A stretch of 64,000 bases of DNA. Origin: an uncultured Syntrophobacterales bacterium (GTDB taxonomy: Bacteria; Desulfobacterota; Binatia; UBA9968; JAJDTQ01). Positions within the stretch are counted from its first letter, which is position 1, and each line of letters opens with the position of its first letter. The notes beneath the pieces are model-generated. The model was not told the origin of the DNA and made no database searches. It saw nothing but the letters and a program-made list of their open reading frames with translations. The DNA lies in the NCBI GenBank assembly GCA_964519455.1, contig CAZFIU010000022.1, forward strand, positions 461 to 64,460, written 5' to 3'. Made by a program: the position numbers and the translations under genes. Shown here piece after piece: positions 2,950 to 63,215 of this stretch.

Positions 2950-3175
2950 TTCGTCAGGCTCCGAGGGTTGTCATCCCCGCGGATTCCCGCTTCCCAGACT
3001 GTGTCAAAACTCCGCTCGGAAAAGAAATGCTACCCATCCCCTGAACCGTCATTCCCGCGGAAGCGGGAATCCAGGGGTGGAGAGGGGCAAAACGGCGTAT
3101 TCCCCCCGCCTCACCCCGCCTGGATTCCCGCTTCCGCGGGAATGACGAATCGAGGGATCCGTGCCTCATGAGTCG
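2950..3175 (+). repeat. MITE/REP-like palindromic element, copy 1 (right end truncated)
   Basis: Contains cagactgtgtcaaaactccgctcgg, then hairpin gtcattcccgcggaagcgggaatccagg, a spacer, and the inverse hairpin cctggattcccgcttccgcgggaatgac. It matches nine other loci in the window. Confidence 0.85.
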
Positions 3176-3256
3176 TGATTCTTCGTTGCCTATTCCCCCT
3201 CCCGGCAGTATGCTGCAAGTGTGAGGTCAAGCGTGGTCTGGTGTTGCGTCCCTTTC

Positions 3257-3267
3257 GGAAAGGAGGG
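3257..3267 (+). promoter_or_regulatory. Shine-Dalgarno sequence (ggaaaggaggg) 7 nt upstream of the ATG at 3274
   Basis: Purine-rich AGGAGG core at the correct spacing before MSVIMIYEG. Confidence 0.6.
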
Positions 3268-3273
3268 CTCGTC

Positions 3274-4089
3274 ATGTCGGTCATCATGATCTACGAAGGT
3301 ATCCACGGCGCGGAGGCAGTCGCCAACCGGGTCGCGAAGTCCCTGAGCTACAAGTGCGTGGGACGTCAGGATCTGGCGGCCACTCTGCCGAACTACGGCG
3401 TGCCGCGCGCCAAGCTCGACGACATCACGGAGAAGGAGCCGCACTGGTGGGAACAGTGGCTGCAGGACTTGCGGCCCTACCGCATCGCGCTGCAGGCCGC
3501 CATGTGCGAGATGGCTCAGGCCGGCCCGATGGTCTACCACGGACACGTGGGCCACGAGCTGCTCCCCGGAGTCGCCCATGTGCTCAAGGTGTTCCTGACC
3601 GGTCCCATGGAGCTGCGCATCGACCTGCTGCGGTCGCGGCTGGCGGTGGACGAGGGCACCATCCGCAAGCAGCTCGAGCACACCGATCGGGCGCGCAGCC
3701 GGCGGCTCATGTCCCTGTTCGGCCACGACTGGCAGGACCCGAACCGCTACCACTTGGTGCTCAATCTCTCCATGGGCGTGGACGCCGCCAGTGAGGTCAT
3801 CGGCACCGCCGCCCGGCTCCCGGCGTTCGTTGAGACACCAGCCTCCAAGCAAGCCTTCGAAGACTTGGCACTGGCCAGGAAGACCCAGGCGACACTGCTT
3901 CAGTCCGACTTGTACCGCGGCCTGCCCATCGACGTGAAGGCGCACGACGGGACCGTGACGGTGTCCGGCATGGTCTCCCCGCCGGTTACCGTGGAAGGAG
4001 TGGTGGCGGCCGTCAAGAGCATCCCGGACGTCACCAAGGTGACCGCGAATCTCGTGGTGGTGCCGCGCAGCCATTCCGACATCGAATAG
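3274..4089 (+). CDS. Cytidylate kinase-like family protein with a C-terminal BON domain
   Basis: The internal start MSVIMIYEG follows an RBS. The body resembles the cytidylate-kinase-like AAA family, and the tail (DVKAHDGTVTVSGMV...VTANLVVV) is BON-like. The ORF-track start at 3175 is judged too long. Confidence 0.7.
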   Translation: MSVIMIYEGIHGAEAVANRVAKSLSYKCVGRQDLAATLPNYGVPRAKLDDITEKEPHWWEQWLQDLRPYRIALQAAMCEMAQAGPMVYHGHVGHELLPGVAHVLKVFLTGPMELRIDLLRSRLAVDEGTIRKQLEHTDRARSRRLMSLFGHDWQDPNRYHLVLNLSMGVDAASEVIGTAARLPAFVETPASKQAFEDLALARKTQATLLQSDLYRGLPIDVKAHDGTVTVSGMVSPPVTVEGVVAAVKSIPDVTKVTANLVVVPRSHSDIE

Positions 4090-4099
4090 CCGAGCCGAT

Positions 4100-5545: not shown

Positions 5546-5579
5546 ACCGCCGGACGTTCACCACCCGTCAGTCCTGCCT

Positions 5580-5995
5580 CCCAGGCTGTGCCACACTCAT
5601 GAGGTAGAGACCCCTCGGATCTTCATTCCCACGGAACTGGGTGTGTCAATGCTCCACTCGGACACGCAAATGGCACCACACCCCGAATCGTCATTCCCGC
5701 GGAAGCGGGAATCCAGGGGTGGTGGGTGTGGCGGCCTCATTGCCCGGCCCCACCCCGCCTGGATTCCCGCTTCCGCGGGAATGACTCATTGGGGTGTAGT
5801 GGGATTTCGTAACTATCAGAGATCATTGAACAAGATTTTATTTCCATATCAATGACGATTCGGTGGGGTGTCTGCCTCATGAGTTTTGACACAGCCTGTT
5901 CCGCGGGAATGACGTATTATTCGTAATATCTCTGCGTGGAGAGTTTTGACACAGCCCCGGAAGTGGGAATCCGGACGGGGCAAGGCGGGGAGTAC
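5580..5995 (+). repeat. MITE/REP-like palindromic element, copy 2 (full length, right terminal inverted repeat duplicated)
   Basis: The left end (gtgtgtcaatgctccactcggacacgcaaatggcacc) is followed by both hairpins, a tail (...atcattgaacaagattttatttccatatcaatgac...), and the right inverted repeat gagttttgacacagcc, which occurs twice (about 5881 and 5941). Confidence 0.85.
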
Positions 5996-8823: not shown

Positions 8824-9112
8824 TCCGTCATTCCCGGCTCCCTCCGTCATTCCCGCTTTCCAGGCTGTGTCAAAACCCCGCTCGGCTACGAAGTGGAAGT
8901 GGCACCGCCACCCCATATCGTCATTCCCGCGCAAGCTTGCCCTCGACTCCGATCGGGGGCGGGAATCCATGGGTGGGGGGTGTGGCGACCTCACTGCCCG
9001 GCCCCACCCCGCCTGGATTCCCGCTTCCGCGGGAATGACTCATTGGGATGTAGCGGGGTTCCGTAACTACCAGAAATCATTGAACAAGACTTTATTTTCA
9101 TATCAATGACCC
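8824..9112 (+). repeat. MITE/REP-like palindromic element, copy 3
   Basis: Same architecture as copy 2. Hairpin 1 carries an insertion (tcattcccgcgcaagcttgccctcgactccgatcgggggcgggaatcc), and the right inverted repeat is missing. Confidence 0.85.
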
Positions 9113-15527: not shown

Positions 15528-15865
15528 CTCGTCATTCCGCGGAAGAGGCTGTGTCAAAACGTTGGCCGGACAAGAGGTGGCACCCACACCCCAATGAGTC
15601 ATTCCCGCGGAAGCGGGAATCCAGGGGTGGGGGGTCTGGCGGCCTTATTGCCCGGCCCCACCCCGCCTGGATTCCCGCTTCCGCGGGAATGACTCATTGG
15701 GGTGTGGCAGGATTCCGTAACTACCAGAAATCATTGGACAAGTTCTTATTTTCATATCAATGACGGTTCGGGGTGGCCGTGCCATTCCGTGTTCGTTTGG
15801 AGTTTTGACACAGCCTGGAAAGCGGGAATCCAGGCGGGGCGAGGCGGGGCTTTGACACCGCTCGC
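15528..15865 (+). repeat. MITE/REP-like palindromic element, copy 4 (full length plus a partial extra hairpin)
   Basis: Left end ggctgtgtcaaaacg, both hairpins, tail, and right inverted repeat gagttttgacacagcc, followed by tggaaagcgggaatccaggcgggg. Confidence 0.85.
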
Positions 15866-17874: not shown

Positions 17875-17911
17875 AACAAGCGCACCAATCGTCCCGCACA
17901 GACGTGGAGCC

Positions 17912-18937
17912 CTACGGTTCCTGTTCGCCCCTCGGCCCGCCGAAGGCCGACAAGTGCTCCTTGAGAGTGCGGAACCCGGCTTCGTTCAGCCCCGTCGCGG
18001 CCTCGATCACATCCCAGGTCACCCCGACCCTCAGAAAGCCCTCAACTACCTCCACCTTGCCGCGTTGTGCGCCTTCCGCCAGCCCTTGGCCACGGCCTTC
18101 CTCACGTCCTTGGCTCCGGCCTTCCTCACGGCCTTGGCTCCGGCCTTCCGCTCTACCCTCTTCCAGGAGTTGTTGAGCATATGACATGATCTCGCCTCCC
18201 TGCTCGCGGCCACGGCGCCGCAACGCTTCGTTGAAAGCCAGCGCTCCCGCTTCATCCTGTGTCGCCATCACGTACACCATGAATAGACGAATATAGTTCA
18301 CCCCGCCACCTGAAAACAACGTCGCCAGCAACCTCGCCGCGGCGTCCATCGCCAGACCCACGTTCCGTCCATAGGCCGCCATCATCAACAACTGCGCGAT
18401 GCGCCCCTTGACCCCTCCCTCCACGCCGTCCGGACCGAGACTCGTCTGGTCCACCAGCACGTGCTCGAACCGAGGCACCCACGGCCATCCCCGAACCGCC
18501 GCAGGAAACAGGTCCGCGAACTCCGTCGAGTGCCCCCATCCGCGGCCTCCCTGGTAGAACACCACCGGCACGATGGGATGCAACCCCGGCCGCCCCGCCT
18601 CGTCCCGCAGCCCCGCATCCCAGATCCGGCAGCAATACTTGAGCAACCGGAACCGCATCCATGCGTCCGACGTCGATTGATGCTCGAACAGCAGGTACAG
18701 CCATATCCGCTCTGTGTCCTCCCCATACACCGCCTCGTACAGCAGGTCCGACTCGCTCTCCCGCAGGGCGTCGTCCAGGAACGTTCCCTCCAGCAGGTTC
18801 AGCGTCTCCCAATCCACCCTGTCCCGGAATCCGGCGGGCAAAGCCGCCCGCAACAGGCCGGCGGCTTCCGCCGCATCCGAAAACACCGCGCGGAACAGCC
18901 GGTCGTGGGGATGCTCTACTTCGTGGGCCATGGACAC
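17912..18937 (-). CDS. Rpn-family recombination-promoting nuclease / putative transposase (YhgA-like, PD-(D/E)XK)
   Basis: N-terminus HDRLFRAVFSD...LLYEAVYGEDTERIWLYLLFEHQS is characteristic of Rpn/Transposase_31 proteins. The C-terminus carries imperfect tandem 8-aa repeats (GRAEGRSQGREEGRSQGREEGRGQG). Confidence 0.8.
   Translation of the reverse strand: MSMAHEVEHPHDRLFRAVFSDAAEAAGLLRAALPAGFRDRVDWETLNLLEGTFLDDALRESESDLLYEAVYGEDTERIWLYLLFEHQSTSDAWMRFRLLKYCCRIWDAGLRDEAGRPGLHPIVPVVFYQGGRGWGHSTEFADLFPAAVRGWPWVPRFEHVLVDQTSLGPDGVEGGVKGRIAQLLMMAAYGRNVGLAMDAAARLLATLFSGGGVNYIRLFMVYVMATQDEAGALAFNEALRRRGREQGGEIMSYAQQLLEEGRAEGRSQGREEGRSQGREEGRGQGLAEGAQRGKVEVVEGFLRVGVTWDVIEAATGLNEAGFRTLKEHLSAFGGPRGEQEP
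18084..18155. repeat. Three 24-bp tandem repeats inside the Rpn-family gene (ccttggc(c/t)(a/c)cggccttcctcacg(t/g))
   Basis: Direct repeats are visible in the sequence and encode the octapeptide repeats of the protein. Confidence 0.8.
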
Positions 18938-19405
18938 ACCTCCCGGGTCTGGACAAAGACGGCGAGGATTGTTCGCCGCCTGTCCTATGATATTCGGCCC
19001 TTTCCGGTGAGACTTTAGGCCCAGGCTGGATTGTCTTTCCCCTTATCGACCAGTGCGTTCGATCAGGGGTTCAATTCGGCGACGGGTCCGAGTTGAAATG
19101 TCAAAGGGCGGCCTTGAGGTGCGCTCGTCCGGGGCACGCATTCTCGACCACGTGTTTGAGGTCCGCGATTCGGCACGGAGAGACTGTGGCTCTGAGCCCC
19201 GTCAACCCGATGGACTTCCTGTTCCTCGGGAGATGCTGCTCCGCCACCGCGAAGAAAAGCCATTGGCGGGGACCGCTGTGATTGGCATACCTATCGCGCC
19301 TCTCGTCATGCCATGCAAAAACACAGATATCCGCTGGCCGTCCCGGAGAGTCCACCCATCGACTCCCGTCCCCTCAATCGGGTTTGGAGACAAGCTTTCG
19401 CAGGA

Positions 19406-20020
19406 TCACGGATAGGTGAACGTCGGAGGAAGTACGTTGCCAAGGAATGGCCGTCCGAAGTTGTTGCGGATTGTCAAGGCGGATGTCGGATCACGGCGAA
19501 AACGTGAATCGCCAATCTCCCCCTTCACCTTGATGCCGACGTGCTGCTTGAGCGCCTCCTGCACCACTACCTCCACGTCCTCGATCCGCTGCCCCGGATG
19601 ACAGGTCACTTCCGCCCAGCAGAACCAAGTGCGGTCAAGCATTGCCTTGACCGTTTCCCGACTTGTCTTGTCACCCCGACCCTTGACCATGTCGATCGCG
19701 CTTGAGTTTAAGACTCCTACCGGATCCGCTAGGAAATCAACTACGTTCCTCGGGATAGAGAAACACACAGGGTTCTTAAACCAGGAAATCCGTTGCCCGT
19801 CGCTGTCTCGTTTGCCGGCCCCGTGCACATGTTCGTACCAGCGCCTGCCGATGTCGTCTGACTTACCAACGTAATAGCCCGCGTAGGCGTCGCCGGTGGT
19901 TGCCATCACAAAAATGTAGACACCAGTGCCAAGGTAGGGGCAATACCAGTTCGAATAGGGCTCGGGCTCGATCGCTCCCATCGGGACCGATTTCCAATGT
20001 AGATCATAGGTGCCGGACAT
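19406..20020 (-). CDS. GIY-YIG nuclease family protein
   Basis: Motifs GVYIFVMATTGDAYAGYYVGKSDDIGRRWYEH (GIY ... YVG ... R ... E). The internal start MSGTYDL is chosen; the ORF-track N-terminal extension overlaps the upstream gene and is low complexity. Confidence 0.7.
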   Translation of the reverse strand: MSGTYDLHWKSVPMGAIEPEPYSNWYCPYLGTGVYIFVMATTGDAYAGYYVGKSDDIGRRWYEHVHGAGKRDSDGQRISWFKNPVCFSIPRNVVDFLADPVGVLNSSAIDMVKGRGDKTSRETVKAMLDRTWFCWAEVTCHPGQRIEDVEVVVQEALKQHVGIKVKGEIGDSRFRRDPTSALTIRNNFGRPFLGNVLPPTFTYP

Positions 20021-20097
20021 GTTTATGTTCTCCTGTGCCGCGATCCGTAGTTGGTGGGCTTTACCCGGTTCTGGACCGGACACCCGATCTGCTGTAC

Positions 20098-21096
20098 TCA
20101 CCTGTGAGACGAGTAACCGCGATGGTGTGCGGCGAGCGAAGCGCACATTGCCGCAAGCCGCTGGCGAAGGCTGGGCGGCTCCAGGATTGTCACGCTTTCT
20201 CCCCATGTCACGAGATGCCAACAAATTTCTTCGACGCCTCCCGCCCTGAAACGCACCGTCAGCGAGTCGTCGCTGTTCTCAGTGATGGTCTGGCTTGGAT
20301 GGAATTGAAACGCCTTGGCGTCCTGCGCGGCGTCGGCATCGAAGTGGAGCACCACGTCGAAGGGTTCCTCCTGGAAAGTGCCAAATGAACGCTCGGCGTA
20401 CCGCCTCAAATCGAAAGCCGGGTCGCCTTCGAATGGCTCATCGGTGATCTGCGCCTCGCTGATGTTTCCGAGTCTCCAGAGCCTCGGCTTGTTTCCCTGA
20501 TCGGTTCGTCCCACCAGGAAAGCACGGTTGCCGTAAAGAACCCCATAGGGGCAAACCCGCTGGCGGTCCCGCCGCCCCGTTCCTCGTGAAGAATATCTGA
20601 TATAGATCTTACGGTACGTCGTCACGGCCTCTCGCACGAGCGAAAGCAGGCCCTCTTCGAAGCTCTCCCTAGGGCCGGCCCGCATCGCGAGGCCTTCCGC
20701 CTCCATGAGAGCCTCAAGCGCAGCGTCGAACTCTTCGGAAGAGTGTTGGTGCGACGCAGCCCGCAGTTTGACCACAAGACCGCTCACGCGCTCTGCGAGG
20801 TCGGCACGACCTAGACTGCCAGCCACCGCTTCAAGGTCCGCAAGGTCCTCAGGTGTGATGGAGATAAACGGGTTCAGGGCGCGCGACCGAAGCCGCCAAT
20901 GAATCCGACGGTCGCCACTGTCCGTGTCCACAACCTCCAGCGGCCCAAATGCTGCCTCGACGGCATCACGCATTCGCTCCGCCGTACGTCGACTTACGGA
21001 GAACTCGCCCTGGATGTCGGCGATGGTTACGCCGCGGTGGCTTCCTTGGAGGTAGATGGCAAGGCAAACAAGCTCTACGAGGCGTTCGTGACGCAT
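20098..21096 (-). CDS. WYL-domain transcriptional regulator (HTH - WYL - WCX; YafY/BrxR/CapW-like)
   Basis: N-terminal HTH (LVELVCLAIYLQGSHRGVTIADIQGEFSVSRRTAERMRD), a central WYL-like segment (IYIRYSSRGTGRRDRQRVCPYGVLYGNRAFLVG) and a C-terminal extension. Confidence 0.85.
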   Translation of the reverse strand: MRHERLVELVCLAIYLQGSHRGVTIADIQGEFSVSRRTAERMRDAVEAAFGPLEVVDTDSGDRRIHWRLRSRALNPFISITPEDLADLEAVAGSLGRADLAERVSGLVVKLRAASHQHSSEEFDAALEALMEAEGLAMRAGPRESFEEGLLSLVREAVTTYRKIYIRYSSRGTGRRDRQRVCPYGVLYGNRAFLVGRTDQGNKPRLWRLGNISEAQITDEPFEGDPAFDLRRYAERSFGTFQEEPFDVVLHFDADAAQDAKAFQFHPSQTITENSDDSLTVRFRAGGVEEICWHLVTWGESVTILEPPSLRQRLAAMCASLAAHHRGYSSHR

Positions 21097-21122
21097 TCAT
21101 TCTCGGGGCGGAGGGGGGATTG

Positions 21123-21731
21123 TCACCAACGGTGGAGCCCGCCCCACCCGTGTTTATCAATCTTCCCGTAACGCCAAGCAGGAATACCTTTGGGGCCAGC
21201 GCTGCCGATCAGGAAGAGATACTCCGCATTGCTTGCTTCTCCGCATTGGTTGTTAACTGCAACGTGCATACGACATAGGATGTCGAGTTTCCGTTCGAGC
21301 CACATCCTCCTCGCTTCGATGTTCAACTGGTCTTCGGGGTAATCGTAAAAGACCAACACCTTCAAGGGAGAACGGAACATCAATAGCTTCCACATCTCCG
21401 TTTCCACATCTGCCCCATTCTCGTGCTCAACTAGTACGTGCATACCATCTGGATACACTCCTCCACCGCCAGGACGGAAAGTAGCCGTGTCTTCGTCATA
21501 GAAGACGGTATCCAGCGTGTACCATTCCCTCCCCATCGTCAGAGTTCGCCCGGCAACAGGAGGTAGCCTTACCGACAATCGTTCCAGGAAAGAACCGTTC
21601 CCTGCCAGCATGTATCGCGTCCATTCGCGGTCGGTCTGGTAAGCTTGTCGAATGTCGTCTTCCCGCTGCAAAACGTCGTCTTCCCACTGTTGGCAAAATG
21701 CAATGCAGAACTCTTCGGCAGTAGGCATCAA
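21123..21731 (-). CDS. Hypothetical protein (no confident family; possible nuclease-like core VLVEHEN...E.EMWK)
   Basis: 202-aa ORF tightly packed between the AAA gene and the WYL gene, with no recognisable domain. Confidence 0.55.
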   Translation of the reverse strand: MMPTAEEFCIAFCQQWEDDVLQREDDIRQAYQTDREWTRYMLAGNGSFLERLSVRLPPVAGRTLTMGREWYTLDTVFYDEDTATFRPGGGGVYPDGMHVLVEHENGADVETEMWKLLMFRSPLKVLVFYDYPEDQLNIEARRMWLERKLDILCRMHVAVNNQCGEASNAEYLFLIGSAGPKGIPAWRYGKIDKHGWGGLHRW

Positions 21732-21780
21732 CTAAGTCCTCCGTCGTCAATCCGTGAAGATGAAACAGTTGGTAGCACAT

Positions 21781-23868
21781 CTACACGGCAAAACCTATTC
21801 TCTGCGGGTAGGCTGACTTGGCTTCACATTCCTCCCGCAACATTTCCACCACGGCTTTCGGGCGTCTGCGGGAGCCCAGAATCTCCGCCTTTCGGCGCAC
21901 GAGGGCAAAGTCACCCAGTGTCAGGGTGTGAAAACTCGCAATGTCCTCCGGAGGCTCCATCCCCAAGTAAACACGGAAAGCCGCCCTGGCCTGCTCGGAC
22001 GACAGGTAGTCAAGCGCAATCTTGAAGGTGAATCGCCGCAAAGTCGCCGGGTCGAGACGCGCTCCGAAGTTGGTCGTGCAAGCAACCGGGAAGGGATGGC
22101 TCTCCATCCAAGTCAGCATCTCGTTGACTTGGCTCACCTCCCAGTGCCATTCGGCGAGGCGCCGGTCGGCCAGCAGTGAATCGGCTTCGTCGAAGACGAG
22201 GAACGCCTCGGCGTCGCGGGCCTCGGCAAAGGCTTTGGCGATGTTCGTCTCCGTTCCACCGACCCACATCGACATCAGGTCGGATGCACGCTTCTGCACG
22301 ACTTCGAGGCCGAGCCGGCCGGCGAGATACCGGACATATGCGCTCTTTCCCGTGCCCGACGGCCCTTGAAGACACAGCGAGAAGCTCCGAGCACCGCTGG
22401 CAACGAGGCAGTCTGCGAGTTGCACCGGGTCCATGTCGGCGCGGATCAGTGCTGGATCGTACTTGTCTGGTGTCCGTTGACTTGTCGGAGTATCGCCTGA
22501 CAGCACCCGAGCGAGTCCGCGCACGCCGCGATGCACGTCGGCCACGGTCCGGCCACCCATTCCCGCGGCCGCGGTGACGCCGGAAGCCACTCCCGGCGTT
22601 ACGTCAAATTCTCGTGCGAGGGCGCGGGCATCTTCCGGGTCCGCCTTGATGCCGTGGTGCGTCAACTGTCGCACCCAGATGCGTTCCCGTACCTTGGGAG
22701 GCGGTTGACGCAGTTCCAGGGCGAACATCATGCGGCGCAAGATGACGGGACTGGTGGAACGGGCGGCGTTCGATGTCCACAGGATTGGCACCGGCGTCTG
22801 CTCCAGTAGCCTATTCATGAACACTTTCGAGCCTTCAGCCGAACGCTCGGGGACACGGCGCGGCCCCAACCATGCCGCAAGGACCTCCCCCTGTCTGGAG
22901 AGCAAATCCTCCATCTCGTCGAAGAGCAGGATCGAGCGCCGGTCTCCGGCCAGCAAGCCTTGAGCGAGCCGGAGATCCTGTATCCGCTCGCGACGGGAAG
23001 GTTCGTCGCCCGTGGCATCCGATTCTCCCACGACGTAGAGCGGAGCTGCCAGCCGCGAGGCCAAGGTCCGGCAGAACTCCGTCTTGCCCGTGCCGGGCGG
23101 CCCATAGATGAGCACATTGACACCCTTCTGGCCGCTCCGTAACGCTCCGCTCAAGATCCGTGCGAGATGGTCCCGATCGCCGGCGACATGGTCGAAATCG
23201 GACCAGAGCAGCTCGCCAGGGCCGGCCTCGTCAAGTAACAGGCGCTGCACGTTGGCGTCATGCTCGTTCGGAACCCAGTGCAATCGAGTCAACCGGTCGA
23301 TAGTCGCCAAGTCGCCATCGTTGTCGATGGATACCAACCCCGATGTTATGAGGGGCGCGTCGGGAGCCAAGCGGCGATGGACCGTGCCGGCCGACAGACC
23401 GAGCAAGCGTGGGAAAAGCGGGTTGTTCATTCCGAAGCCGTTTCCCCTCCAGTACGGACTCTCGCAAATCGCGTCGACCATCAACGCCACAGGTGATCCG
23501 GTACGGTGTCGCAGCAATAACTCCAGGATCGCGGTATCGGTCCGGGAAAGACGCGTAGCCTTTGCGAGACGACGGAGGCGCCTCGCGGTCCGATCCGGGC
23601 GTACGTGTTGAGCCGCAAGCAAGGCGCCTTTGGAAGCCTCTCCCACGCGCTGCCACACCCGCGCCGGGAGATCGTAGTCTCGCAACCCTCGTTCCAATGC
23701 AACTTGGGCTTCATCGTCCTCTCGCAGCAAGTACGGAAGACCCAGTTGGTCCTCATTCTCTCCTAGCCACAGCACCAGGTCCTTGGCCTGCTGGTCGCGG
23801 CACTGGAGGTGCGGAACGACGTTCGACAGGTAGAAGAGGATGAGACGGCGTTCGTATGCAGACAGCAT
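21781..23868 (-). CDS. Tandem classic-AAA+ ATPase (N-terminal roughly 240-aa unknown domain followed by two AAA modules)
   Basis: First module: Walker A VLIYGPPGTGKTE, Walker B ILLFDEMEDLL, sensor-1 TSN. Second module: Walker A LQGPSGTGKSA, SMWVGGTETNIAKAF, Walker B FLVFDEADSLL, sensor-1 CTTN and the arginine-finger region LDPATLRRFTF. The true start MLSAYERRL is at 23866-23868, preceded by a G-rich RBS. The ORF-track extension to 25083 is an antisense artefact over the LLM gene. Confidence 0.8.
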   Translation of the reverse strand: MLSAYERRLILFYLSNVVPHLQCRDQQAKDLVLWLGENEDQLGLPYLLREDDEAQVALERGLRDYDLPARVWQRVGEASKGALLAAQHVRPDRTARRLRRLAKATRLSRTDTAILELLLRHRTGSPVALMVDAICESPYWRGNGFGMNNPLFPRLLGLSAGTVHRRLAPDAPLITSGLVSIDNDGDLATIDRLTRLHWVPNEHDANVQRLLLDEAGPGELLWSDFDHVAGDRDHLARILSGALRSGQKGVNVLIYGPPGTGKTEFCRTLASRLAAPLYVVGESDATGDEPSRRERIQDLRLAQGLLAGDRRSILLFDEMEDLLSRQGEVLAAWLGPRRVPERSAEGSKVFMNRLLEQTPVPILWTSNAARSTSPVILRRMMFALELRQPPPKVRERIWVRQLTHHGIKADPEDARALAREFDVTPGVASGVTAAAGMGGRTVADVHRGVRGLARVLSGDTPTSQRTPDKYDPALIRADMDPVQLADCLVASGARSFSLCLQGPSGTGKSAYVRYLAGRLGLEVVQKRASDLMSMWVGGTETNIAKAFAEARDAEAFLVFDEADSLLADRRLAEWHWEVSQVNEMLTWMESHPFPVACTTNFGARLDPATLRRFTFKIALDYLSSEQARAAFRVYLGMEPPEDIASFHTLTLGDFALVRRKAEILGSRRRPKAVVEMLREECEAKSAYPQRIGFAV

Positions 23869-23984
23869 GACAACCCCCCATTTGTGACGTCCATGGGGGA
23901 CCGTAGCGTGAATGTGCGTCAGTTTCGGACGTACCCGGCTGTCCTCGACGCAGATTTTTCTGGAAGTGGCGAGAGGCGCGGTCC

Positions 23985-24992
23985 TTACACCCGCGGCAGC
24001 ACCGCCGAACCGAACAGTTCCATCGCTGCGAGGATGTCCTTCTGCTCCAGCCCCGGCGTCCAGTCGAAGCGCAGCAGCAGCAAATCCGGCTTGAGCGACT
24101 CCTCGTAGGAGCGGATCTCTTCGATGCAGTCCTCGGGGGAGCCGAGGATGAAGCGGTGGCGGGCGAGGCGGTCGAAGTCCCAGGTTAGCTCGTCGGGGTT
24201 GGTCATGGCCTCGTCCTGGCCCCACTTGACGTAGACGTCGCGGTAGAGCTTGTCGAGGCAGGGGCGGGCCTTGGCCACGGCCTCGTCGCGGGTGGGGGCG
24301 ACGAAGCATTCCCGGACCATGACCAGGGCGCCGGCGCCTGGCTTGCCGGTGTCGGCCCATGCTTGGCGGAAAAGCGTAGTCTGTTCCTTCAACTCCTCGA
24401 TGGCTGAATGGGGTCCCACGAGCCAGCCGTCGCCGATGCGGGCGGCGCGCTTGACGCCCGTGTCGCCGTTGGCGGCGATCCAGACGGGCGGGCGCGGCTT
24501 CTGCAGCGGGCGCGGGGCGATGGTGACGTCCTTCAGTTCGAAGGCGTTGCCTGAGAACGAGACGTGTTCCTCGGTCCAGAGACGCTGGACGATTTCGACA
24601 CCTTCCACGAAACGGTCGAAGCGTTGCTTCTTTGTGAGGTTGAACGCGTCCAACTCCTGCTGCCGGTAACCCAGGCCGAAGGAAAAGACGGCGCGGCCCT
24701 CGTTCATGACGTCGATGGTGGCCAGCTCCTTGGCGATGACCACGGGGTCGTGGAGGCCGAGGAGCGTGGCGGCGGTGCCGACGCTGGCCCGCTTGGCCTC
24801 GGCGCAGAGCCGGCCCAGGAGCGGCACTTGGTGCAGCCGCTGAAAGCCGGGGATGTTGTAATGCTGGCCCATGGTGATGGCCTCGAACCCGGCTTCGTCG
24901 GCCACCCGGGTCTGTTCCGCCAGCGTGGGCAGGAGGGTCTCGGGGGGCTTCTCGATGGAAACCTGGGGATTGAGTTGGATACCGAATCTCAT
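23985..24992 (-). CDS. LLM-class (luciferase-like) flavin-dependent oxidoreductase
   Basis: 335 aa of TIM-barrel LLM family (MRFGIQLNPQ..., ...FSFGLGYRQQELDAFNL...). Confidence 0.9.
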   Translation of the reverse strand: MRFGIQLNPQVSIEKPPETLLPTLAEQTRVADEAGFEAITMGQHYNIPGFQRLHQVPLLGRLCAEAKRASVGTAATLLGLHDPVVIAKELATIDVMNEGRAVFSFGLGYRQQELDAFNLTKKQRFDRFVEGVEIVQRLWTEEHVSFSGNAFELKDVTIAPRPLQKPRPPVWIAANGDTGVKRAARIGDGWLVGPHSAIEELKEQTTLFRQAWADTGKPGAGALVMVRECFVAPTRDEAVAKARPCLDKLYRDVYVKWGQDEAMTNPDELTWDFDRLARHRFILGSPEDCIEEIRSYEESLKPDLLLLRFDWTPGLEQKDILAAMELFGSAVLPRV

Positions 24993-25167
24993 GGTGAACT
25001 CCTGTGGCGGCCGCGGGGGGAAGGTCCTCGTTCCAGGACATTGGCGTCAGGACATCCCGCCCAATTCCCGCGGCATGCCTCAAGGCGCATTGTCAGCCGC
25101 AAGTTCGAGACGTGAACGAACGGGGATCGGCGTAATCCGCCGTCTCCGCGACTTGCAGGCGGCGACT

Positions 25168-30244: not shown

Positions 30245-30510
30245 CCCGGCTGTCATTCATCCGCTCCCCCCGATTGTCATTCCCGCGGAACAGGCCGTGT
30301 CAAAACTCTGCTCAGACACGAAATGGCACCAACCCCCCATACCGTCATTCCCGCGGAAGCGGGAATCCAGGGGTGGTGCGGCGGGGAATACGGCCGTTTG
30401 GCCCCTCCCAACCTCTGGATTCCCGCTTCCGCGGTAATGACGACTCGAGGGGTCTCAGCCTCATGAGTCCTGACACGACCCACTTTCGCGGGAATGATAA
30501 TCGAGAATGA
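30245..30510 (+). repeat. MITE/REP-like palindromic element, copy 5
   Basis: A degenerate left partial is followed by caggccgtgtcaaaactctgctcagacacgaaatggcacc, both hairpins (second variant gcggtaatgac), and gcctcatgagtcctgacacgacc. Confidence 0.85.
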
Positions 30511-30555
30511 CTATTGCCGGGATCGTGCGCCATTCTCATGGCAACGGCATGCCCG

Positions 30556-32845: not shown

Positions 32846-33123
32846 TTCAAATTGAATTTCGCATGTATTTCCGTATTTGACAATCCGAGTTGCTAACCAG
32901 GGCTTCGGAGGACTTGCCGCCTCTTGCTTTACTCGGGAAATTCTATACCTTGAGGGCACTTCGTCGTCGGCAAGGCGCGATGACTTGTAGGGGCGACCCG
33001 CGGTCGCCCCTCTGGCGGGCGCCACGCGAGGAAGACCCCCGGGCCAGGCCCGGAGTGACGCCATGCAGCCGGCGGCGCAAGAACCCGTGGATTCATCAAG
33101 CCATTCGTGACCCAGGACACCAC

Positions 33124-33132
33124 GCAGGAGGA
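33124..33132 (+). promoter_or_regulatory. Shine-Dalgarno sequence (gcaggagga) upstream of the ATG at 33140
   Basis: AGGAGG core 8 nt before the start of MDKVPIIDADGH. Confidence 0.55.
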
Positions 33133-33139
33133 CCGATCC

Positions 33140-34184: not shown

Positions 34185-34545
34185 TTTCCCACCCCGCCTC
34201 GAAACGTCATTCCCGCGGAACAGGCTGTGTCAAAACTCCACTTGGAGTGGAACTGGCACCGACCTCCAGAATCGTCATTCCCGCGGAAGCGGGAATCCAG
34301 GGGTGGAGAGGGGCAAACGGGCTGTTCCCCGCCTCACCCCACCTGGATTCCCGCTTCCGCGGGAATGACGGTTCTGGAGGTCGGCGCCAATTTTGGGGGT
34401 TCGTGCCAGTTCGTGTCTGAGCAGAGTTTTGACACGACCTGTTCCGCGGGAATGACGGTTCGGGGCGTGGTGCCATATTCGTGTCCGAGCGGAGTCTTGG
34501 CACAGCCTGGGAAGCGGGAATCCAGGGGTGGGGGTGTGGCGGGAT
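34185..34545 (+). repeat. MITE/REP-like palindromic element, copy 6 (full length, with two right-end repeats)
   Basis: Contains gtcattcccgcggaacaggctgtgtcaaaactcc...both hairpins...gagttttgacacgacc...gagtcttggcacagcctgggaagcgggaatccagggg. It ends directly against the stop codon of the 34548 gene. Confidence 0.85.
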
Positions 34546-56623: not shown

Positions 56624-57898
<1,275 letters not shown>

Positions 57899-57964
57899 TC
57901 ATCCCTTCCGATGGAGCGTACGCCATTCCACTTGAGAACAGTCCCCACCACCGCCTGCCTGCGA

Positions 57965-58100
57965 ACCATTCCCGCTTTACCCACCTACGACTCGCCCTCC
58001 CTACCACCGAGGCATTCCCTCCCTACCACCTTCGAGTCATTCCCGCGGAAGCTTGCCCTCGACCCCGATCGGGGGCGGGAATCCAGGGGTTGGGGAGGGG
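57965..58100. repeat. MITE/REP-like element, copy 7 (partial; variant hairpin with a long loop)
   Basis: Contains gagtcattcccgcggaagcttgccctcgaccccgatcgggggcgggaatccagggg, the same loop insertion seen in copy 3. Confidence 0.7.
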
Positions 58101-58111
58101 AGCGCATCGCC

Positions 58112-58483
58112 CTACGGCTCCGAGAAATCGAACGCATGCCGCACGTGGCGCACCGCCGGCGGGTCCGAGCGCAACGAAATGCCGACCACGTCGAACTGCA
58201 CGTCCCGGTCATGCAAGTGATGTCTGTTGAGATAGTGCAGCGCGGCGCGCTTCAACCGCCGCTGCTTGGCGCCGTTGACCGATTCCAGCGGCGCCCCCGA
58301 CGTGTCCACCCTGCGGGTCTTCACCTCCACGAACACCACGGCGCGCTTGTCCAGTGCGATCAGGTCGATCTCGCCCAACGGGCACCGATAGTTGCGCTCG
58401 ACGATGGCATAGCCCTGGCGCTTGAGGTAACGTTCGGCGAGTTCTTCCCCCGCCTTGCCCATAGACTGCCGCGGATCACTCAT
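58112..58483 (-). CDS. yraN: YraN-family protein (UPF0102, predicted endonuclease)
   Basis: ...GEELAERYLKRQGYAIVERNYRCPLGEIDLIALDKRAVVFVEVKTRR... is the family pattern. Confidence 0.8.
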   Translation of the reverse strand: MSDPRQSMGKAGEELAERYLKRQGYAIVERNYRCPLGEIDLIALDKRAVVFVEVKTRRVDTSGAPLESVNGAKQRRLKRAALHYLNRHHLHDRDVQFDVVGISLRSDPPAVRHVRHAFDFSEP

Positions 58484-58569
58484 TCCTCATTTTGTGGCAC
58501 CTGAGAGCGGCACCGGCAAGCCTTGTCCTCAGGATTCGCCGAACTGCGCTTGAATACGCGAGGGCACCG

Positions 58570-58695
58570 AGGCCCGGAACCGTCATTCCCGCGGAACAGG
58601 GTGTGTCAGAACCCCGCTCAAGCAGGAGACAGCACGGCCCCCCCCCCCCCCGAAACGTCATTCCCGCGGAAGCGGGAATCCAGGCGGGATGGGCT
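58570..58695 (+). repeat. MITE/REP-like element, copy 8 (left half plus hairpin 1), containing a 13-nt poly-C tract
   Basis: Contains gtcattcccgcggaacagggtgtgtcagaaccccgctc...ggC13gaaacgtcattcccgcggaagcgggaatccaggcggg. Homologous spacers in other copies carry only 4-6 C. Confidence 0.8.
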
Positions 58696-59428
58696 GGGGA
58701 TAGTGCCCCGGGCTGTGCCGTTCCGCCGACTCCCGGACGGGCTTGAAGCTCCGCCGGTGGACGGGACAGGGACCGTAACGGTCAAGGGCCGCGGAGTGGC
58801 GGCGGCTGCGGTAGCCCTTGTGGCTGGCGAACCCGTACTCCGGATACGCGGCGTCCAGCTCCACCATCATGCGGTCCCGCGCCACCTTGGCGATGATGGA
58901 CGCGGCCGCGATGGAGAAGCACACCCGATCGCCCCCCTTGATGGTGCGTTGCGCCGGCGGCGCAACGCGGCAACCATCCCCCTCCAGGAAGCTGGCGGTG
59001 GGAATGCCGTAGGGTCCGTCGATCATGAGAAAGTCCGGCGCGACTTCCAGGCCCCGGACCGCCCGCGCCATGGCCAGCAGGCTCGCGCGCAGGATGTTGA
59101 GGCGGTCGATCTCGCCCGGATCGGCCACCCCCACGGCCCAGGCAGCCGATCGGTCCCGGATCCATCCGGCCAGACGCTCGCGCTTCCTGGGCGTCAGCAG
59201 CTTGGAGTCCTTGATGTCGGGATTGAAGACGCCGGGCTCGAACACCACCGCCGCGGCCACCACCGGCCCCGCCAGCGGGCCGCGCCCGACCTCGTCCACG
59301 CCGGCGACGTGCCGGAAGCCGCGCGCGAGCGCGTCCATTTCAAAAACGGTGCCGTCGGGTCCGCGGGGCTCCGGCGCGAGCAGCCGTCCGGGACGGGAGG
59401 TTGTAGAGGGAGTTCGTTTGCCGCGCAT
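58658..59428 (-). CDS. rnhB: Ribonuclease HII (3' end runs about 20 codons into repeat copy 8)
   Basis: The core motif GVDEVGRGPLAGPVV and ...SIIAKVARDRMMVELD... are present. The C-terminal tail ...PIPPGFPLPRE is the translation of the repeat. An alternative start MDALARGF lies 90 nt downstream. Confidence 0.85.
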   Translation of the reverse strand: MRGKRTPSTTSRPGRLLAPEPRGPDGTVFEMDALARGFRHVAGVDEVGRGPLAGPVVAAAVVFEPGVFNPDIKDSKLLTPRKRERLAGWIRDRSAAWAVGVADPGEIDRLNILRASLLAMARAVRGLEVAPDFLMIDGPYGIPTASFLEGDGCRVAPPAQRTIKGGDRVCFSIAAASIIAKVARDRMMVELDAAYPEYGFASHKGYRSRRHSAALDRYGPCPVHRRSFKPVRESAERHSPGHYPQPIPPGFPLPRE

Positions 59429-59837: not shown

Positions 59838-61322
59838 ATGACCACCGATCCGTGTTTCCTCGGCATCCATGAACTGCACGACCGGCTGTGCCGCCGCGAA
59901 CTGAGCGCCGTCGAGTTGGCGGAAGCGCTGTTCGGGCGCATCGACGCCACCGACCACGCCATCGGCGCCTACCTCGCCGTGTCACGCGAGCAAGGCATGG
60001 AGGCCGCGCGCCGGGCGGATGCGCGCTTCGCCGCGGGCGACGTGTCGTCGAAGCTGCTCGGCATTCCCGTGGCGCTCAAGGACGTGCTCCTCACCGACGG
60101 TGTCGCCACCACGTGCGCATCCAGGATCCTGAATGGGTTCACACCGCCCTACGACGGCACCGCGGTGCGCCGCCTCAAGGACGCTGGGGCCGTGCCCCTG
60201 GGCAAGACCAACATGGACGAGTTCGCCATGGGCTCCTCCAGCGAGAACTCCGGCTACGCCATCACCCGCAACCCCTGGAACCTCGACCACGTGCCGGGCG
60301 GCTCCTCCGGCGGTTCCGCCGCCGCGGTGGCCGCCGGCCAGTGCATCGCCGCGCTGGGGACGGACACCGGCGGGTCCATCCGCCAGCCGGCGTCGTTCTG
60401 CGGCATCGTCGGGCTCAAGCCCACCTATGGGCGGGTGAGCCGGTACGGCGTAGTGGCGTATGCGTCCTCGCTGGACCAGGTGGGCCCCATGACCCGGGAC
60501 GTCACCGACTGCGCGCTGGTGCTCCAGGCCATCGCCGGCCACGACCCCGCGGACTCCACCTCGGGGGACGTGCCCGTGCCCGACTACGCCGCGGCGTTGA
60601 CCGGCGACGTCAAGGGAATGCGTATCGGCGTGCCCCGGGAATTCTTCGCGACCGGGCTCCAGCCCGACGTGGAACAGGCGGTGCGGCAAGCCATCCGGGA
60701 ACTGGAGAAGGCCGGCGCCGTGGTGATGGAGGTATCGCTCCCGCGGAACGATTACGCCGTGGCCGCCTACTACGTCATCGCCGCCGCCGAGGCCAGCTCC
60801 AACCTGGCGCGCTACGACGGCATGCGCTACGGCCCCCGCGCCGACGCCGGCGACCTCACCGCCACCTACATGAAGAGCCGCGCCCAGGGATTCGGAAAGG
60901 AAGTGAAACGGCGGATCATGCTCGGCACCTACGTGCTGTCCGCCGGCTACTACGACGCCTACTACCTCAAGGCGCAGAAGGTCAGAACGCTGCTCAAGCA
61001 GGACATGGAATCGGCCCTGAGCGGCTGCGACGCCATCGTCGCCCCCACCTGCCCCACCACCGCCTTCAAGCTCAACGAAATGACCCACGACCCGCTGCAG
61101 ATGTACCTGTCCGACATCCTCACCATCTCGGTGAACCTGGCGGGGCTCCCCGCGCTGTCAGTGCCGTGCGGCTTCGATACCGCTGGTCTGCCCATCGGCA
61201 TGCAGATCATCGGGAAGCACTTCGATGAGGCCACGGTGCTGCGACTGGGATACGCCTACGAGCAGGCGACGGAGTGGCATACGTGGAAGCCGGCGCTGCC
61301 GTTGCCGGCAACTTCCTCGTAA
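59838..61322 (+). CDS. gatA: Asp-tRNA(Asn)/Glu-tRNA(Gln) amidotransferase subunit A
   Basis: Amidase signature ([14 protein letters not shown]...[16 protein letters not shown]) in a 494-aa protein. Confidence 0.95.
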
Positions 61323-61339
61323 ATCTCCTCTGCGGTTCT

Positions 61340-61530
61340 CCGGGAATCGCCTCCGCCCCCTGCTAGTTACGGAATCCCGCTACCCCCCAACGAGTCATTC
61401 CCGCTTCCGCGGGAATGACTCGTTGGGGGGTAGCGGGATTCCATAACTAGCAGAAATCATCGAACAAGATTTTATTTTCGGATCAATGACGGTTCGAGGG
61501 GTGTCTGCTTACTGAAGTCATTGCATAATA
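61340..61530. repeat. MITE/REP-like element, copy 9, built around a 94-bp near-perfect palindrome (61360..61453)
   Basis: Sequence ctgctagttacggaatcccgctaccccccaacgagtcattcccgc-ttcc-gcgggaatgactcgttggggggtagcgggattccataactagcag (45-bp arms, 1 mismatch). It is followed by the family tail ...atcatcgaacaagattttattttcggatcaatgacggttcg... Confidence 0.85.
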
Positions 61531-61587
61531 TTCAATGACGGCAAGCCGTGGCGCGAATGAGCAGGTGAAGGCGCACGCGCACCGGGC

Positions 61588-62742
61588 TTACGCCGTACCC
61601 AGTATCAGCGTCGCGTGCATGGCCAGGCTGCCGCCGTGGCCGCTGATGATGCCGGCCTTGGCATCGGCCACCTGGCGCTCGGACTCGACCTCGTTGCCGC
61701 GGAGCTGGCGGGCGCCTTCGGTGAGGTGCAGCATGCCCTCCAGGTGCGCCTGGGACAGGAGGCCGCCGTGGGTGTTGAGGGGGATCTCGCCGCCGATGCC
61801 GATGCGGCCGTCCTTGACGAAGTCCTTGCCCTCGCCTTTCTCGCAGAAGCCATAGTCCTCCAGGGTGATCATGGCGGTGATGGTGAAGCAGTCGTACAAC
61901 TCGGCGAAGTCCATGTCCCTGGGCTCAAGGCCGGCCATGTCGTAGGCCATGCGCGAGGACTTGCGGCCGCCCAGAGTGGTGAGGGTGGGCGCGTCCAGCA
62001 GGCTGAAGTGGGGATGGTGTTGCCCCATGCCGAGGATCACCACCGGCGGCTTGGGGAAGTCCCTGGCGCGCTCCAGGCTGGTGACCAGGACGGCGCCGCC
62101 GCCATCGGATTCCAGCGAGCAGTCCAGCAGGTGCAATGGCGCGACGATCATGCGCGACTGCTGGTGGTCCTCCAGCGTGATGGGCTTCTTCATGGTGGCG
62201 TTGGAGTTGAGCGATGCGTGCCGGCGGGTGGAGATGGCGATCTCCGCCAGGTCCTCGCTGCGGGTGCCGAACTCGTACATGTGGCGCTGGGCGGCCAGCG
62301 CGTGGCCGGCGGCGGCGGCGAAGTGCCCCCAGGGCCGCTCCCAGTGCTCGTCGCCCCGGCGGATGGGGTAGCCGGGGGTGGCGTCGCCGGTGGAACGCTT
62401 GCGCGCGTGCACGCACACCACCGTGTGGCACATGCCCGCGTCGATGGCCATGACCGCGTGCTGCACCATGGCGATGGGCGTGGCGCCGCCGAGCGCCAGG
62501 TCGGTGGCGTACACCGGAGTGATGCCGGCCATGTGCGCCAGCCGCACGGCGTAGCTCCGGTGAGCGTCGTTCAGCGGCTGGTTGGTGACAAAGCCGTCCA
62601 CCGCGTCGCCGCGGATGCCCGCGTCGTCGAGACAGGCACGGATGGCTTCCAGGTGCAGCGAATGCGTGGTTCCGTCCGGACGCTTGCCCACCTGCGTCTC
62701 GCCCACGCCGACGATGGCGTACTTGCCTCCGAGATTGGCCAT
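61588..62742 (-). CDS. Thiolase-like protein (SCP-x / nonspecific lipid-transfer-protein-type thiolase)
   Basis: 384 aa with thiolase fold markers (IVGVGETQVGKRPDG, CHTVVCVHARK, NTHGGLLSQAHLEG). Confidence 0.85.
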   Translation of the reverse strand: MANLGGKYAIVGVGETQVGKRPDGTTHSLHLEAIRACLDDAGIRGDAVDGFVTNQPLNDAHRSYAVRLAHMAGITPVYATDLALGGATPIAMVQHAVMAIDAGMCHTVVCVHARKRSTGDATPGYPIRRGDEHWERPWGHFAAAAGHALAAQRHMYEFGTRSEDLAEIAISTRRHASLNSNATMKKPITLEDHQQSRMIVAPLHLLDCSLESDGGGAVLVTSLERARDFPKPPVVILGMGQHHPHFSLLDAPTLTTLGGRKSSRMAYDMAGLEPRDMDFAELYDCFTITAMITLEDYGFCEKGEGKDFVKDGRIGIGGEIPLNTHGGLLSQAHLEGMLHLTEGARQLRGNEVESERQVADAKAGIISGHGGSLAMHATLILGTA

Positions 62743-62869
62743 GCTTCCTCCTTGGCGGGGCGCAGCCCCTGCGCGGCAGAGTGATTCCGAATCCGTACCA
62801 GCAAAGGACGAATGGCGTCAAGAATGACCCTTTCCCCCGGGAGCCCAACCTGCCCGCCTGGACCCCCCG

Positions 62870-63215
62870 CTCTCCAGGCTGTGCCGAATCTCCGCTCCGA
62901 AGAGAAATGGTGTCACCCCCCGAGTCGTCATTCCGGCGAAACAAGGGTGTGCCAAGACTCCGCTCGGACACGAAACGGCACCACCCTCCCGAAACGTCAT
63001 TCCCGCGAAAGCGGGAATCCAGGCGGGGGAGGGCGGGGAATACGCCGATTGCCCCACCCCACCCCTGGATTCCCGCCTTCGCGGGAATGACGTTTCGGGG
63101 GACCTATGCCTATGAGTCTTGACGCAGCCTGTTTCGCGCGAATGACGACTCGTAGGATCCACACCTCGCAAGCTTCGACGCAGCCCTGTTGCGCGGGAAT
63201 GACGTATTCGGGCCG
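62870..63215 (+). repeat. MITE/REP-like palindromic element, copy 10 (most divergent; left module duplicated)
   Basis: Contains caggctgtgccgaatctccgctccg...ggtgtgccaagactccgctcggacacgaaacggcacc...gtcattcccgcgaaagcgggaatccaggcggg...cctggattcccgccttcgcgggaatgacg...tatgagtcttgacgcagcc...cttcgacgcagccctgttgcgcgggaatgacg. Confidence 0.8.

Follow-up and report, generated by a model that had tools for sequence, protein, structure and literature searches.

What kind of repeat occupies ten intergenic sites within one 64-kb stretch of bacterial DNA, and how do its copies change over time? The stretch, which we call the window, comes from an uncultured Binatia bacterium: its genes are 91-94% identical in nucleotide sequence to those of the Binatia metagenome-assembled genome (MAG) jk18x27bins.63, one of its proteins is 97% identical to that of jk18x7bins.45, and the homologues are named Binatia or Binatota. 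An exact look-up of a 914-aa window protein found no record. The original prediction described the ten sites as a composite element of about 300 bp bounded by 16-bp terminal inverted repeats (TIRs). We consider it probable that they are mosaic arrays built on a hairpin of the NTS/dRS3 type, forming an Ssn-related repeat system in a Binatia chromosome.

The repeats are far more frequent than chance would allow. The hairpin GTCATTCCCGCGGAAGCGGGAATCCAGG matched the window 14 times with three mismatches or fewer, 10 of these exactly, against 0 expected from shuffled sequences, and GGCTGTGTCAAAACTC matched 11 times with two mismatches or fewer (0.01 expected). The core of the neisserial dRS3 repeat, ATTCCC-N8-GGGAAT, was found 14 times exactly and twice with one mismatch (0.07 expected), and an AT-rich tail twice with three mismatches or fewer and four times when more divergence was permitted. 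Self-BLAST of the ten sites returned exactly ten repeat-bearing intervals and no others, numbered here as arrays 1 to 10; they range from 177 to 408 bp and sum to 2748 bp, or 4.3% of the window, so the number of sites and the coverage of about 4% given by the original prediction both stand. All ten arrays are intergenic, with array 8 overlapping the 3' end of rnhB; the flanking genes are divergent at three arrays, tandem at five and convergent at two. The statement that the repeats sit at almost every gene junction in the right half was too strong, as arrays fill 5 of 12 gaps longer than 60 bp there, four of them within 57.9-63.2 kb, a count that depends on an approximate gene map (based on G+C content at third codon positions, with Pfam checks on top). 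The asymmetric arrays do all point in one direction on the + strand, as predicted, in numbers too small for statistics. No Rfam family matched the window at gathering thresholds, a tRNA scan found no genes, and literature string searches with the hairpin and with the terminus of module A (described below) found no match.

The sequence of the hairpin connects these arrays to a known family. As described in PMC11893778 (Nat Commun 2025), NTS is a 28-nt hairpin with the consensus CGTCATTCCCGCGMAVGCGGGAATCYRG (the authors' scoring allows one mismatch), a longer form of the neisserial dRS3 repeat, and the single-stranded DNA (ssDNA) target of SsnA, a 94-aa GIY-YIG nuclease. SsnA binds the hairpin only as ssDNA, not in its RNA form, and cuts it a few nucleotides upstream; the trinucleotide upstream of the palindrome is important for cleavage, and the C that directly follows the palindrome is the most important base for binding; the loop is dispensable in its identity, and a split hairpin too is cut (PMC11893778). 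Similar hairpins, the Ssn-related motifs (SRM), occur across many phyla, and 81% of genomes with more than 200 SRM encode an Ssn homologue; the NTS-ssnA-NTS arrangement was likened to an insertion sequence (IS), with an analogy drawn to repetitive extragenic palindromes (REP), the REP-associated tyrosine transposase (RAYT) and bacterial interspersed mosaic elements (BIME) (PMC11893778). The dominant window copy, (C)GTCATTCCCGCGGAAGCGGGAATCCAGG, differs from the NTS consensus by a single mismatch, a G at the M loop position, and the hairpin qualifies by sequence as an SRM of the NTS/dRS3 type.

The pattern of conservation points the same way. Among 130 hairpin copies from the window and its close relatives, no fewer than 125 agree at any stem or flank position of the 28-mer; in the upstream GTC the G and T are invariant and the C is kept in 129 of 130, as is the C after GGGAAT. 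The positions that vary substantially are one loop base and, outside the 28-mer, the first and second-to-last bases of the 31-mer. Unpaired flanks as invariant as the stem, next to flanking modules that are only 60-90% alike, fit recognition by a sequence-specific protein and do not fit a purely structural role in RNA or DNA. The stem hardly varies among these copies, too little for an analysis of covariation.

Elsewhere, the identical hairpin accompanies a nuclease gene. A GIY-YIG gene adjoins it in two of the loci fetched from other genomes for comparison (designated by L-numbers), L034 and L093, and searches of the window and all loci with an Ssn-type protein (tblastn, phmmer) matched only these two. 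When metagenome contigs were scanned with an alignment of the two proteins and 80 Ssn-type loci were kept, 56 of these contained the window hairpin with three mismatches or fewer, and none contained module A. Among the 64 genes with room on both sides, 27 have a forward hairpin (H) within 150 nt upstream of the start, mostly at 4-20 nt, 23 have an inverted one (H') within 150 nt after the stop, mostly at 2-15 nt, and 16 have both; the opposite orientation accounts for only 2 and 5 cases. Since such an inverted pair brackets ssn elsewhere, the H-spacer-H' doublets of our arrays look like a gene-less miniature of the H-ssn-H' cassette, with about 40 nt in place of the gene, by analogy with the relation of REPINs to RAYT cassettes. 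This partner family, GIY-YIG ssDNA nucleases, is a likelier cognate than the IS200/IS605 TnpA transposase named in the original prediction.

Two window genes were examined and rejected as ssn candidates. Arrays 7 and 8 enclose a small nuclease gene, which is a housekeeping UPF0102/YraN gene in conserved synteny, and the 204-aa GIY-YIG-domain protein at 19406-20019 shares only the core and catalytic motif with Ssn (hhalign probability 27%). All-against-all clustering of open reading frames (ORFs) near arrays, carried out for a cognate gene, turned up metabolic paralogues and nothing else (xanthine-dehydrogenase-like, UbiD-like, amidohydrolase and luciferase-like proteins).

The arrays are mosaics of modules joined at the hairpin rather than copies of one TIR-bounded element. 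H has an 8-bp stem, ATTCCCGC/GCGGGAAT, a GGAA loop and fixed unpaired flanks, GTC(A) and CCAGG, and usually forms an inverted doublet, H-spacer-H'. The spacer measures 39-44 nt in 57 of 63 doublets and belongs to one of two main families, Sa and Sb, which occur in both strand orientations across the loci. Module A (A+ or A- by orientation; about 52-60 nt) starts with the 16-mer CAGGCTGTGTCAAAACTC, continues through about 35-45 variable nucleotides and ends in CCCCGAAxC, with a half-hairpin (arm and loop) before it and the next GTCATTCCC after it. A typical array reads (half-hairpin + A)n, H, spacer of about 40 nt, H', (A' + half-hairpin)n, with two optional modules: the AT-rich T0/T (about 70 nt), in which the presumed tail is a stem-loop of its own, GTCATTGA...TCAATGA, and I, a 24-bp module within the hairpin directly after the loop (8935-8958 and 58051-58074 in the window). 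Up to three half-hairpin plus A units follow one another head-to-tail (L052, L076), and A units are mirrored across the doublet, which makes whole arrays long palindromes. Array 10 is predicted to fold as ssDNA at -112 kcal/mol (z = -12), and the 94-nt palindrome of array 9 at -59.8 kcal/mol (z = -16).

The 16-mer is therefore an internal landmark of a short module that is repeated head-to-tail and itself flanked by half-hairpins; it lies at both ends of only four of the ten sites, arrays 2, 4, 6 and 10. The two inverse hairpins of the original prediction are present as a pair at six sites, with one hairpin interrupted at one more, and its AT-rich tail is found at four sites, only two of them within three mismatches, and not at the rest. 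Among 147 A termini from the window and all fetched loci, 85 adjoin a recognisable hairpin arm and loop, and the junction always falls directly after the loop: GTC-ATTCCCGC and a loop, mostly GGAA or GAAA, precede 74 of the termini, and TGG-ATTCCCGC and TTYC precede 11. The termini form 18-nt inverted repeats, paired at four of the ten window arrays; the 19 innermost pairs overall lie 189-288 bp apart. The check for target-site duplications proposed with the prediction gave a divided answer, with a direct duplicate of the loop 4-mer at arrays 2, 4, 6 and 10 and inverted half-hairpins around most pairs. In array 2, the left half of a split hairpin (TTCATTCCCAC-GGAA, 5622-5636, + strand) has the arm variant CCCAC and the right half, 320 bp away (GGAA-GTGGGAATCCGG, 5959-5974, + strand), has the complementary GTGGG, with the GGAA loop on both sides; the position of this variant pair is otherwise invariant in the 130 intact copies.

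The hairpin is widespread, and its multiplication is confined to one lineage. We scanned the exact 28-mer against 185,579 species genomes and matched at least 103 blocks. Among the matches listed, blocks with multiple copies came only from the Candidatus Binatia MAGs jk18x7bins.45 and jk18x27bins.63, in which hairpin copies lie on at least 43 different 8-kb blocks; as predicted, this is a dispersed, high-copy family of REP-like palindromes and not a segmental duplication. As a single copy, the 28-mer occurs in well over ten phyla or classes among the matches listed, including Nitrospirota, Omnitrophota, Chloroflexota, Acidobacteriota, Spirochaetota, Planctomycetota and several classes of Proteobacteria, usually with an inverted hairpin of different sequence 15-40 nt further on, in which the ...ATGAC flank is kept. 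Among these matches, modules A, T and I are confined to the two bins, except for one probably misbinned contig of the same study and single matches in two other Binatia genomes, and viral contigs gave no match for the hairpin or the A terminus. Two contigs labelled Gemmatimonadetes from the same study as the Binatia bins also carry Binatia-type repeats (A and I modules in L001; a T0/T-like flank and an Sb-type spacer in L019), and both are probably misbinned.

Orthologous loci place the expansion within this lineage. We fetched six, with L107 (jk18x7bins.45) as the closest genome and five from more distant relatives whose GatA or XDH (xanthine dehydrogenase) proteins are 88-90% identical and whose gene order is kept. 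In the five distant relatives a stretch of ~21-23 kb has 0-3 single hairpins, and modules A, T and I are absent, so the density that the original prediction found unusual is specific to the lineage. The serS|yraN spacer measures 15-38 bp in L104-L106, where array 7 is absent, versus 213-216 bp in the window, the exact figure varying with the gene-end calls. Between thiolase and gatB, L105 and L106 have one intact hairpin, CCTGGATTCCCGCTTTCGCGGGAATGAC (that is, CCTGGATTCCCGC-TTTC-GCGGGAATGAC), at a site where the window has CCTGGACCCCCCGC-TCTC, 310 bp of A, H and S modules, and TTGC-GCGGGAATGAC. We read array 10 as a hairpin split in its loop with a loop tetranucleotide on both sides; the halves are likely orthologous to the intact hairpin, the left arm having diverged. 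In the relatives rnhB and yraN overlap, and array 8 is inserted at that very point in the window, where it encodes the last ~18 residues of RNase HII, the stop codon lying in the hairpin's GTCA flank.

Array content was compared at four junctions, with L107 and with L078, a jk18x27bins.63 locus. Array 3 is ~97% identical to its L107 counterpart, in which I occupies both hairpins rather than one, the difference being a clean 24-bp indel at the position directly after the loop; the doubled I of L107 suggests that a change on one arm of the palindrome may be copied to the other. Arrays 1 and 2 share their junctions with L107 and differ in internal modules (T present or absent; Sa versus Sb), and array 5 shares its site with L078 and has a different module set. 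Empty or single-hairpin sites together with module indels and swaps indicate that the family expanded in this lineage and that remodelling continues, in keeping with the recent activity first proposed from truncated and nested copies.

On the reading we prefer, an Ssn-related system, the hairpins would extrude in ssDNA, where an Ssn-type nuclease with its gene in another part of the genome would bind and nick them, and the H-spacer-H' doublets would be non-autonomous miniatures of the H-ssn-H' cassette, much as REPINs are of RAYT cassettes. Arrays would grow as palindromic modules insert into hairpin loops, where insertions may be tolerated because loop identity is dispensable for Ssn. Fold-back (inverted) duplication, suggested by the near-perfect palindrome of array 9 and by the inverted half-hairpins around most A pairs, would also enlarge arrays and make them symmetric, and recombination among the many identical hairpins would reshuffle them, as has been proposed for neisserial intergenic mosaic elements (NIMEs). 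Several observations weigh against this reading. Neither the window nor the ~350 kb of sampled Binatia blocks yielded an ssn homologue, so the connection to Ssn comes from other genomes and the 81% statistic; SsnA is known to cut ssDNA and to modulate transformation, not to mobilise repeats (PMC11893778); and no excision or insertion intermediate was observed. Around most A pairs the half-hairpins are inverted and not direct, and loop insertion with target duplication alone does not explain most A-bounded units. A different role for the same nuclease, which we regard as unlikely, would make the NTS hairpin a dedicated integration and excision site, with the Ssn GIY-YIG nuclease moving palindromic cargo (spacers, the A composite, I and, elsewhere, ssn itself) as ssDNA between or into hairpins. 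The nested arrays would then be its footprints, and the process a GIY-YIG-based transposition analogous but unrelated to the 'peel and paste' of IS200/IS605.

The insertion of modules into hairpin loops could also be the work of a transposase. The A composite (CAGGCTGTGTCAAAACTC ... GAGTTTTGACACAGCCTG) may, as a tentative alternative, be a miniature transposable element bounded by TIRs (a MITE), moved in trans by a DDE transposase with the NTS hairpin loop as its target, in the way that IS1397 and ISKpn1 target REP loops; the arrays would then be landing pads plus cargo, and this explanation could coexist with the Ssn one. The 18-nt TIRs at the 19 innermost pairs, the hairpin arm and loop that always form the recognised flanks of A termini, the direct duplication of the loop 4-mer at arrays 2, 4, 6 and 10, the compensatory arm variant in the halves of array 2 and the one intact hairpin in relatives at the array 10 site are all as a MITE would have them, and REP hairpins are known targets of elements of the IS3, IS110, IS4, IS256 and IS5 families (PMC1525189). 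Yet the window, the ~350 kb of Binatia blocks and viral contigs yielded no full-length element or transposase with A termini; the only A+/A- pair kilobases apart (2.3 kb, in L027) was rejected, as its right end is poor and a 648-aa ORF tested from the interval has no Pfam domain. The half-hairpins at most pairs are inverted, with GGAA at one end and TTCC at the other, which just lengthens the 'TIR' to 33 bp and leaves no target duplication; half-hairpin plus A units repeat head-to-tail up to three times, unlike MITEs, and arrays 7, 8 and 9 lack paired termini. The fixed position of every module junction in the hairpin, the cassettes swapped between orthologous arrays and the spacers found in both strand orientations between inverted hairpins would suit a site-specific recombinase that swaps cassettes at the dRS3 core. 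Such a recombinase has a precedent and model in the IS110/Piv-type transposase by which filamentous phages of Neisseria integrate into dRS3 (PMC1797815). We nevertheless doubt it, as no IS110/Piv-like gene was found in the window or sampled blocks, the hairpin and A terminus had no match in viral contigs, and homologous recombination among ~130 identical 28-mers would yield similar products.

Two further explanations are, like the recombinase, weaker. An extragenic, high-copy palindrome family with inverted doublets resembling REPINs and BIMEs invites comparison with a REP/BIME system maintained by a RAYT, an IS200/IS605-type Y1 transposase. This is very improbable here, given that the gene bracketed by the exact hairpin in other genomes encodes a GIY-YIG nuclease and not a Y1 transposase, that no Y1_Tnp domain was found among the window proteins scanned, and that the flank is GTCA and not GTAG. 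GTAG is the flank typical of REPs. A function primarily in RNA, whether as terminators, as small RNAs or as hairpins that stabilise mRNA, would draw on the very stable predicted folds and on arrays 7 and 8, probably transcribed within the co-oriented rnhB-yraN-serS cluster in which they are placed. It seems quite unlikely, and the terminator role raised by the original prediction was not borne out: the hairpins are followed by GGGGTGG and not by T-runs, a scan for terminators and promoters over 1-20 kb of the window showed no enrichment (14 terminator-like sites versus 11.1 expected), three arrays lie between divergent genes and there is no Rfam match. The unpaired flanks, as invariant as the stem, point to sequence-specific protein recognition, and SsnA does not bind the RNA form (PMC11893778).

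Array 1 (2970-3177), between divergent genes, consists of degenerate half-hairpins, A+ (2995-3047), H (3048-3075), Sa (3076-3118), H' (3119-3146) and a truncated A- remnant. Array 2 (5567-5974) has a degenerate A+, the variant left half-hairpin (5622-5636), A+ (5637-5689), H (5690-5717), Sb, H' (5758-5785), T0/T (5786-5856), A- (5857-5898), a half-hairpin (5899-5913), a second A- (5914-5958) and the variant right half-hairpin (5959-5974). Array 3 (8826-9110, + strand) runs from short half-hairpin repeats through A+ (8861-8919), an H interrupted after the loop by I (8935-8958), Sb and an intact H' (9012-9039) to T0/T (9040-9110). Array 4 (15530-15849, + strand), again between divergent genes, comprises a left half-hairpin (15530-15545), A+, H (15598-15625), Sb, H' (15666-15693), T0/T (15694-15764), A- and the right half-hairpin GAAAGCGGGAATCCAGG (15818-15834); in our reading the composite has split a hairpin at its loop. 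In array 5 (30255-30511) a half-hairpin and A+ (30291-30343) precede H (30344-30371), Sa in inverse orientation and H' (30414-30441), with a degenerate A- and a half-hairpin (30484-30498) after them. Array 6 (34188-34545), between convergent genes, has an A+ remnant, a half-hairpin (34206-34220), A+, H (34274-34301), Sa, H' (34342-34369), A-, a half-hairpin (34442-34456), A- and a right half-hairpin (34510-34526).

The remaining four arrays are clustered. Between serS and yraN, array 7 (57918-58106, + strand) has short half-hairpin-like repeats and then a single H (58036-58087) interrupted by I (58051-58074). Array 8 (58540-58716, + strand) is a half array: an A+ remnant, a half-hairpin (58582-58596), A+ with a C14 tract, H (58657-58684) and the left half of a spacer. 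The C14 run (58638-58651) could be prone to slippage or a weak point of sequencing or assembly. Array 8 also uncouples the rnhB/yraN overlap kept in relatives (yraN start 58463-58483), and the RNase HII tail (58658-58716) reads ...SPGHYPQPIPPGFPLPRE in the window versus ...AEATEAGLPVRLFAARKRDGR in the relatives. Between gatA and a thiolase-like gene, array 9 (61330-61541, + strand) has the 94-nt near-perfect palindrome, T0' - symmetric hairpin GTCATTCCCGCTTCCGCGGGAATGAC (61394-61419) - T0, followed by a T tail and a small AT hairpin (61517-61539). Array 10 (62857-63208), between the thiolase-like gene and the divergent gatB, consists of the left half CCTGGACCCCCCGC-TCTC (62857-62874), A+, a half-hairpin, A+, H (62996-63023), Sa, H' (63064-63091), A-, a half-hairpin, A- and the right half TTGC-GCGGGAATGAC (63189-63203). 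The oppositely oriented thiolase-like gene (61588-62742) separates gatA from gatB (59838-63997 together); this layout is kept in L104-L106 and is therefore ancestral to the clade, not the result of a repeat-mediated insertion.

The same spacers vary in other ways. Relatives without the window's arrays have other repeats at the same junctions (L109 9600-9800 and 6800-7050; L104 12800-13000), including tandem repeats of ~20 nt (GGTGTTCGCGGTGACGTTGCA...), tandem half-hairpin units (GGCCGGAATGACCGAGGGTGG...) and hairpins like CCTGGACCCCGGGTCAAGCCCGGGGTGAC, in which the CCTGG...TGAC flanks are kept and the stem is different; this suggests that these spacers are occupied in turn by several SRM-like families. 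At or near the array 2 and 3 junctions, relatives carry accessory genes (L107 14099-19936; L108 8101-9854 and 13715-14791; L109 13752-15313), among them AAA_21 and DUF4276 genes (PARIS-like), a SIR2_2 protein, a PIN protein and a HipA toxin module. These spacers are hot spots of variation in gene content, and the extra genes of L107 are not bracketed by arrays. The window has an AAA_14/DUF4143 ATPase gene at 31694-33754 (- strand); in L105 and L106 a gene with both these domains is found beside serS, in another position, and the gene may be mobile or often relocated. Within the window, an island of low G+C content on the - strand (17900-25100; 58-63% versus ~66% elsewhere) encodes a YhgA/Rpn-like 'Transposase_31' PD-(D/E)XK protein (17912-18937), the 204-aa GIY-YIG-domain protein already mentioned (19406-20019), a WYL-WCX regulator (20098-21096), a 202-aa ORF and a 1100-aa double-AAA ATPase with IetA-like matches (21781-25083). 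It looks like an acquired island of the defence type, and no hairpin repeats were found within or beside it.

The kind of hairpin described here, NTS/dRS3 and Ssn-related, is known; the Binatia host and the details of the architecture are new. PMC11893778 broadened the range of the hairpin, and such arrays and Binatia are not described in the parts of that paper drawn on here. The same hairpin, unpaired flanks included, builds arrays comparable to NIMEs in an uncultured, high-G+C phylum, in agreement with the idea of Ssn-associated hairpins as a widespread system that structures genomes. The relatives offer a natural time series, from no hairpin or a single one through doublets to nested arrays, that reveals the entry point of new material, right after the loop, and the pace of array turnover, and how NTS/SRM repeats multiply becomes directly testable. 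Because arrays coincide with intergenic changes, and one rewrote the C-terminus of RNase HII, they also matter for the annotation and assembly of Binatia MAGs.

Among known systems, NTS and other SRM share with the Binatia hairpin the dRS3 core, the conserved determinants of SsnA activity, an extragenic and clustered placement and the bracketing of Ssn-type genes in metagenomes. The host differs, Binatia not being among the taxa named in the parts of PMC11893778 drawn on here, as does the setting: the window contains no ssn, and its hairpins sit within palindromic arrays that also comprise lineage-specific modules and many half-hairpins. The REP/BIME/REPIN systems are similar in their short extragenic palindromes forming inverted doublets with a fixed spacer, their lineage-specific expansion in copy number, the single-copy nuclease gene bracketed by the same palindromes and the proposed action on ssDNA hairpins; here, however, the nuclease is of the GIY-YIG and not the HUH/Y1 type, the hairpin sequence and flanks are different, and mobilisation by Ssn is only proposed. 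The IS that target REPs (IS1397, ISKpn1, IS621 and ISPpu9; PMC1525189) resemble module A, whose terminus lies at one hairpin position and whose loop 4-mer is duplicated on both sides in four arrays, whereas module A comes without a known transposase gene and most of its copies without a direct duplication.

The NIMEs of Neisseria (PMC1797815) offer the parallel at the level of whole arrays. In both, dRS3-type inverted repeats separate families of repeat modules of ~40-70 nt, and syntenic intergenic arrays vary in content and length among relatives and border variable gene content. In NIMEs the dRS3 repeats flank RS elements of ~50-150 bp, and here A, T0/T and Sa/Sb lie between whole or half hairpins; the arrays described here differ in being strongly palindromic, with tandem half-hairpin units, in a genome of 66% G+C. 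NIME arrays were stated to be unobserved outside Neisseria (Bentley et al. 2007, PMC1797815). Given their Binatia host and lineage-specific modules, the ten arrays are NIME-like rather than NIMEs.

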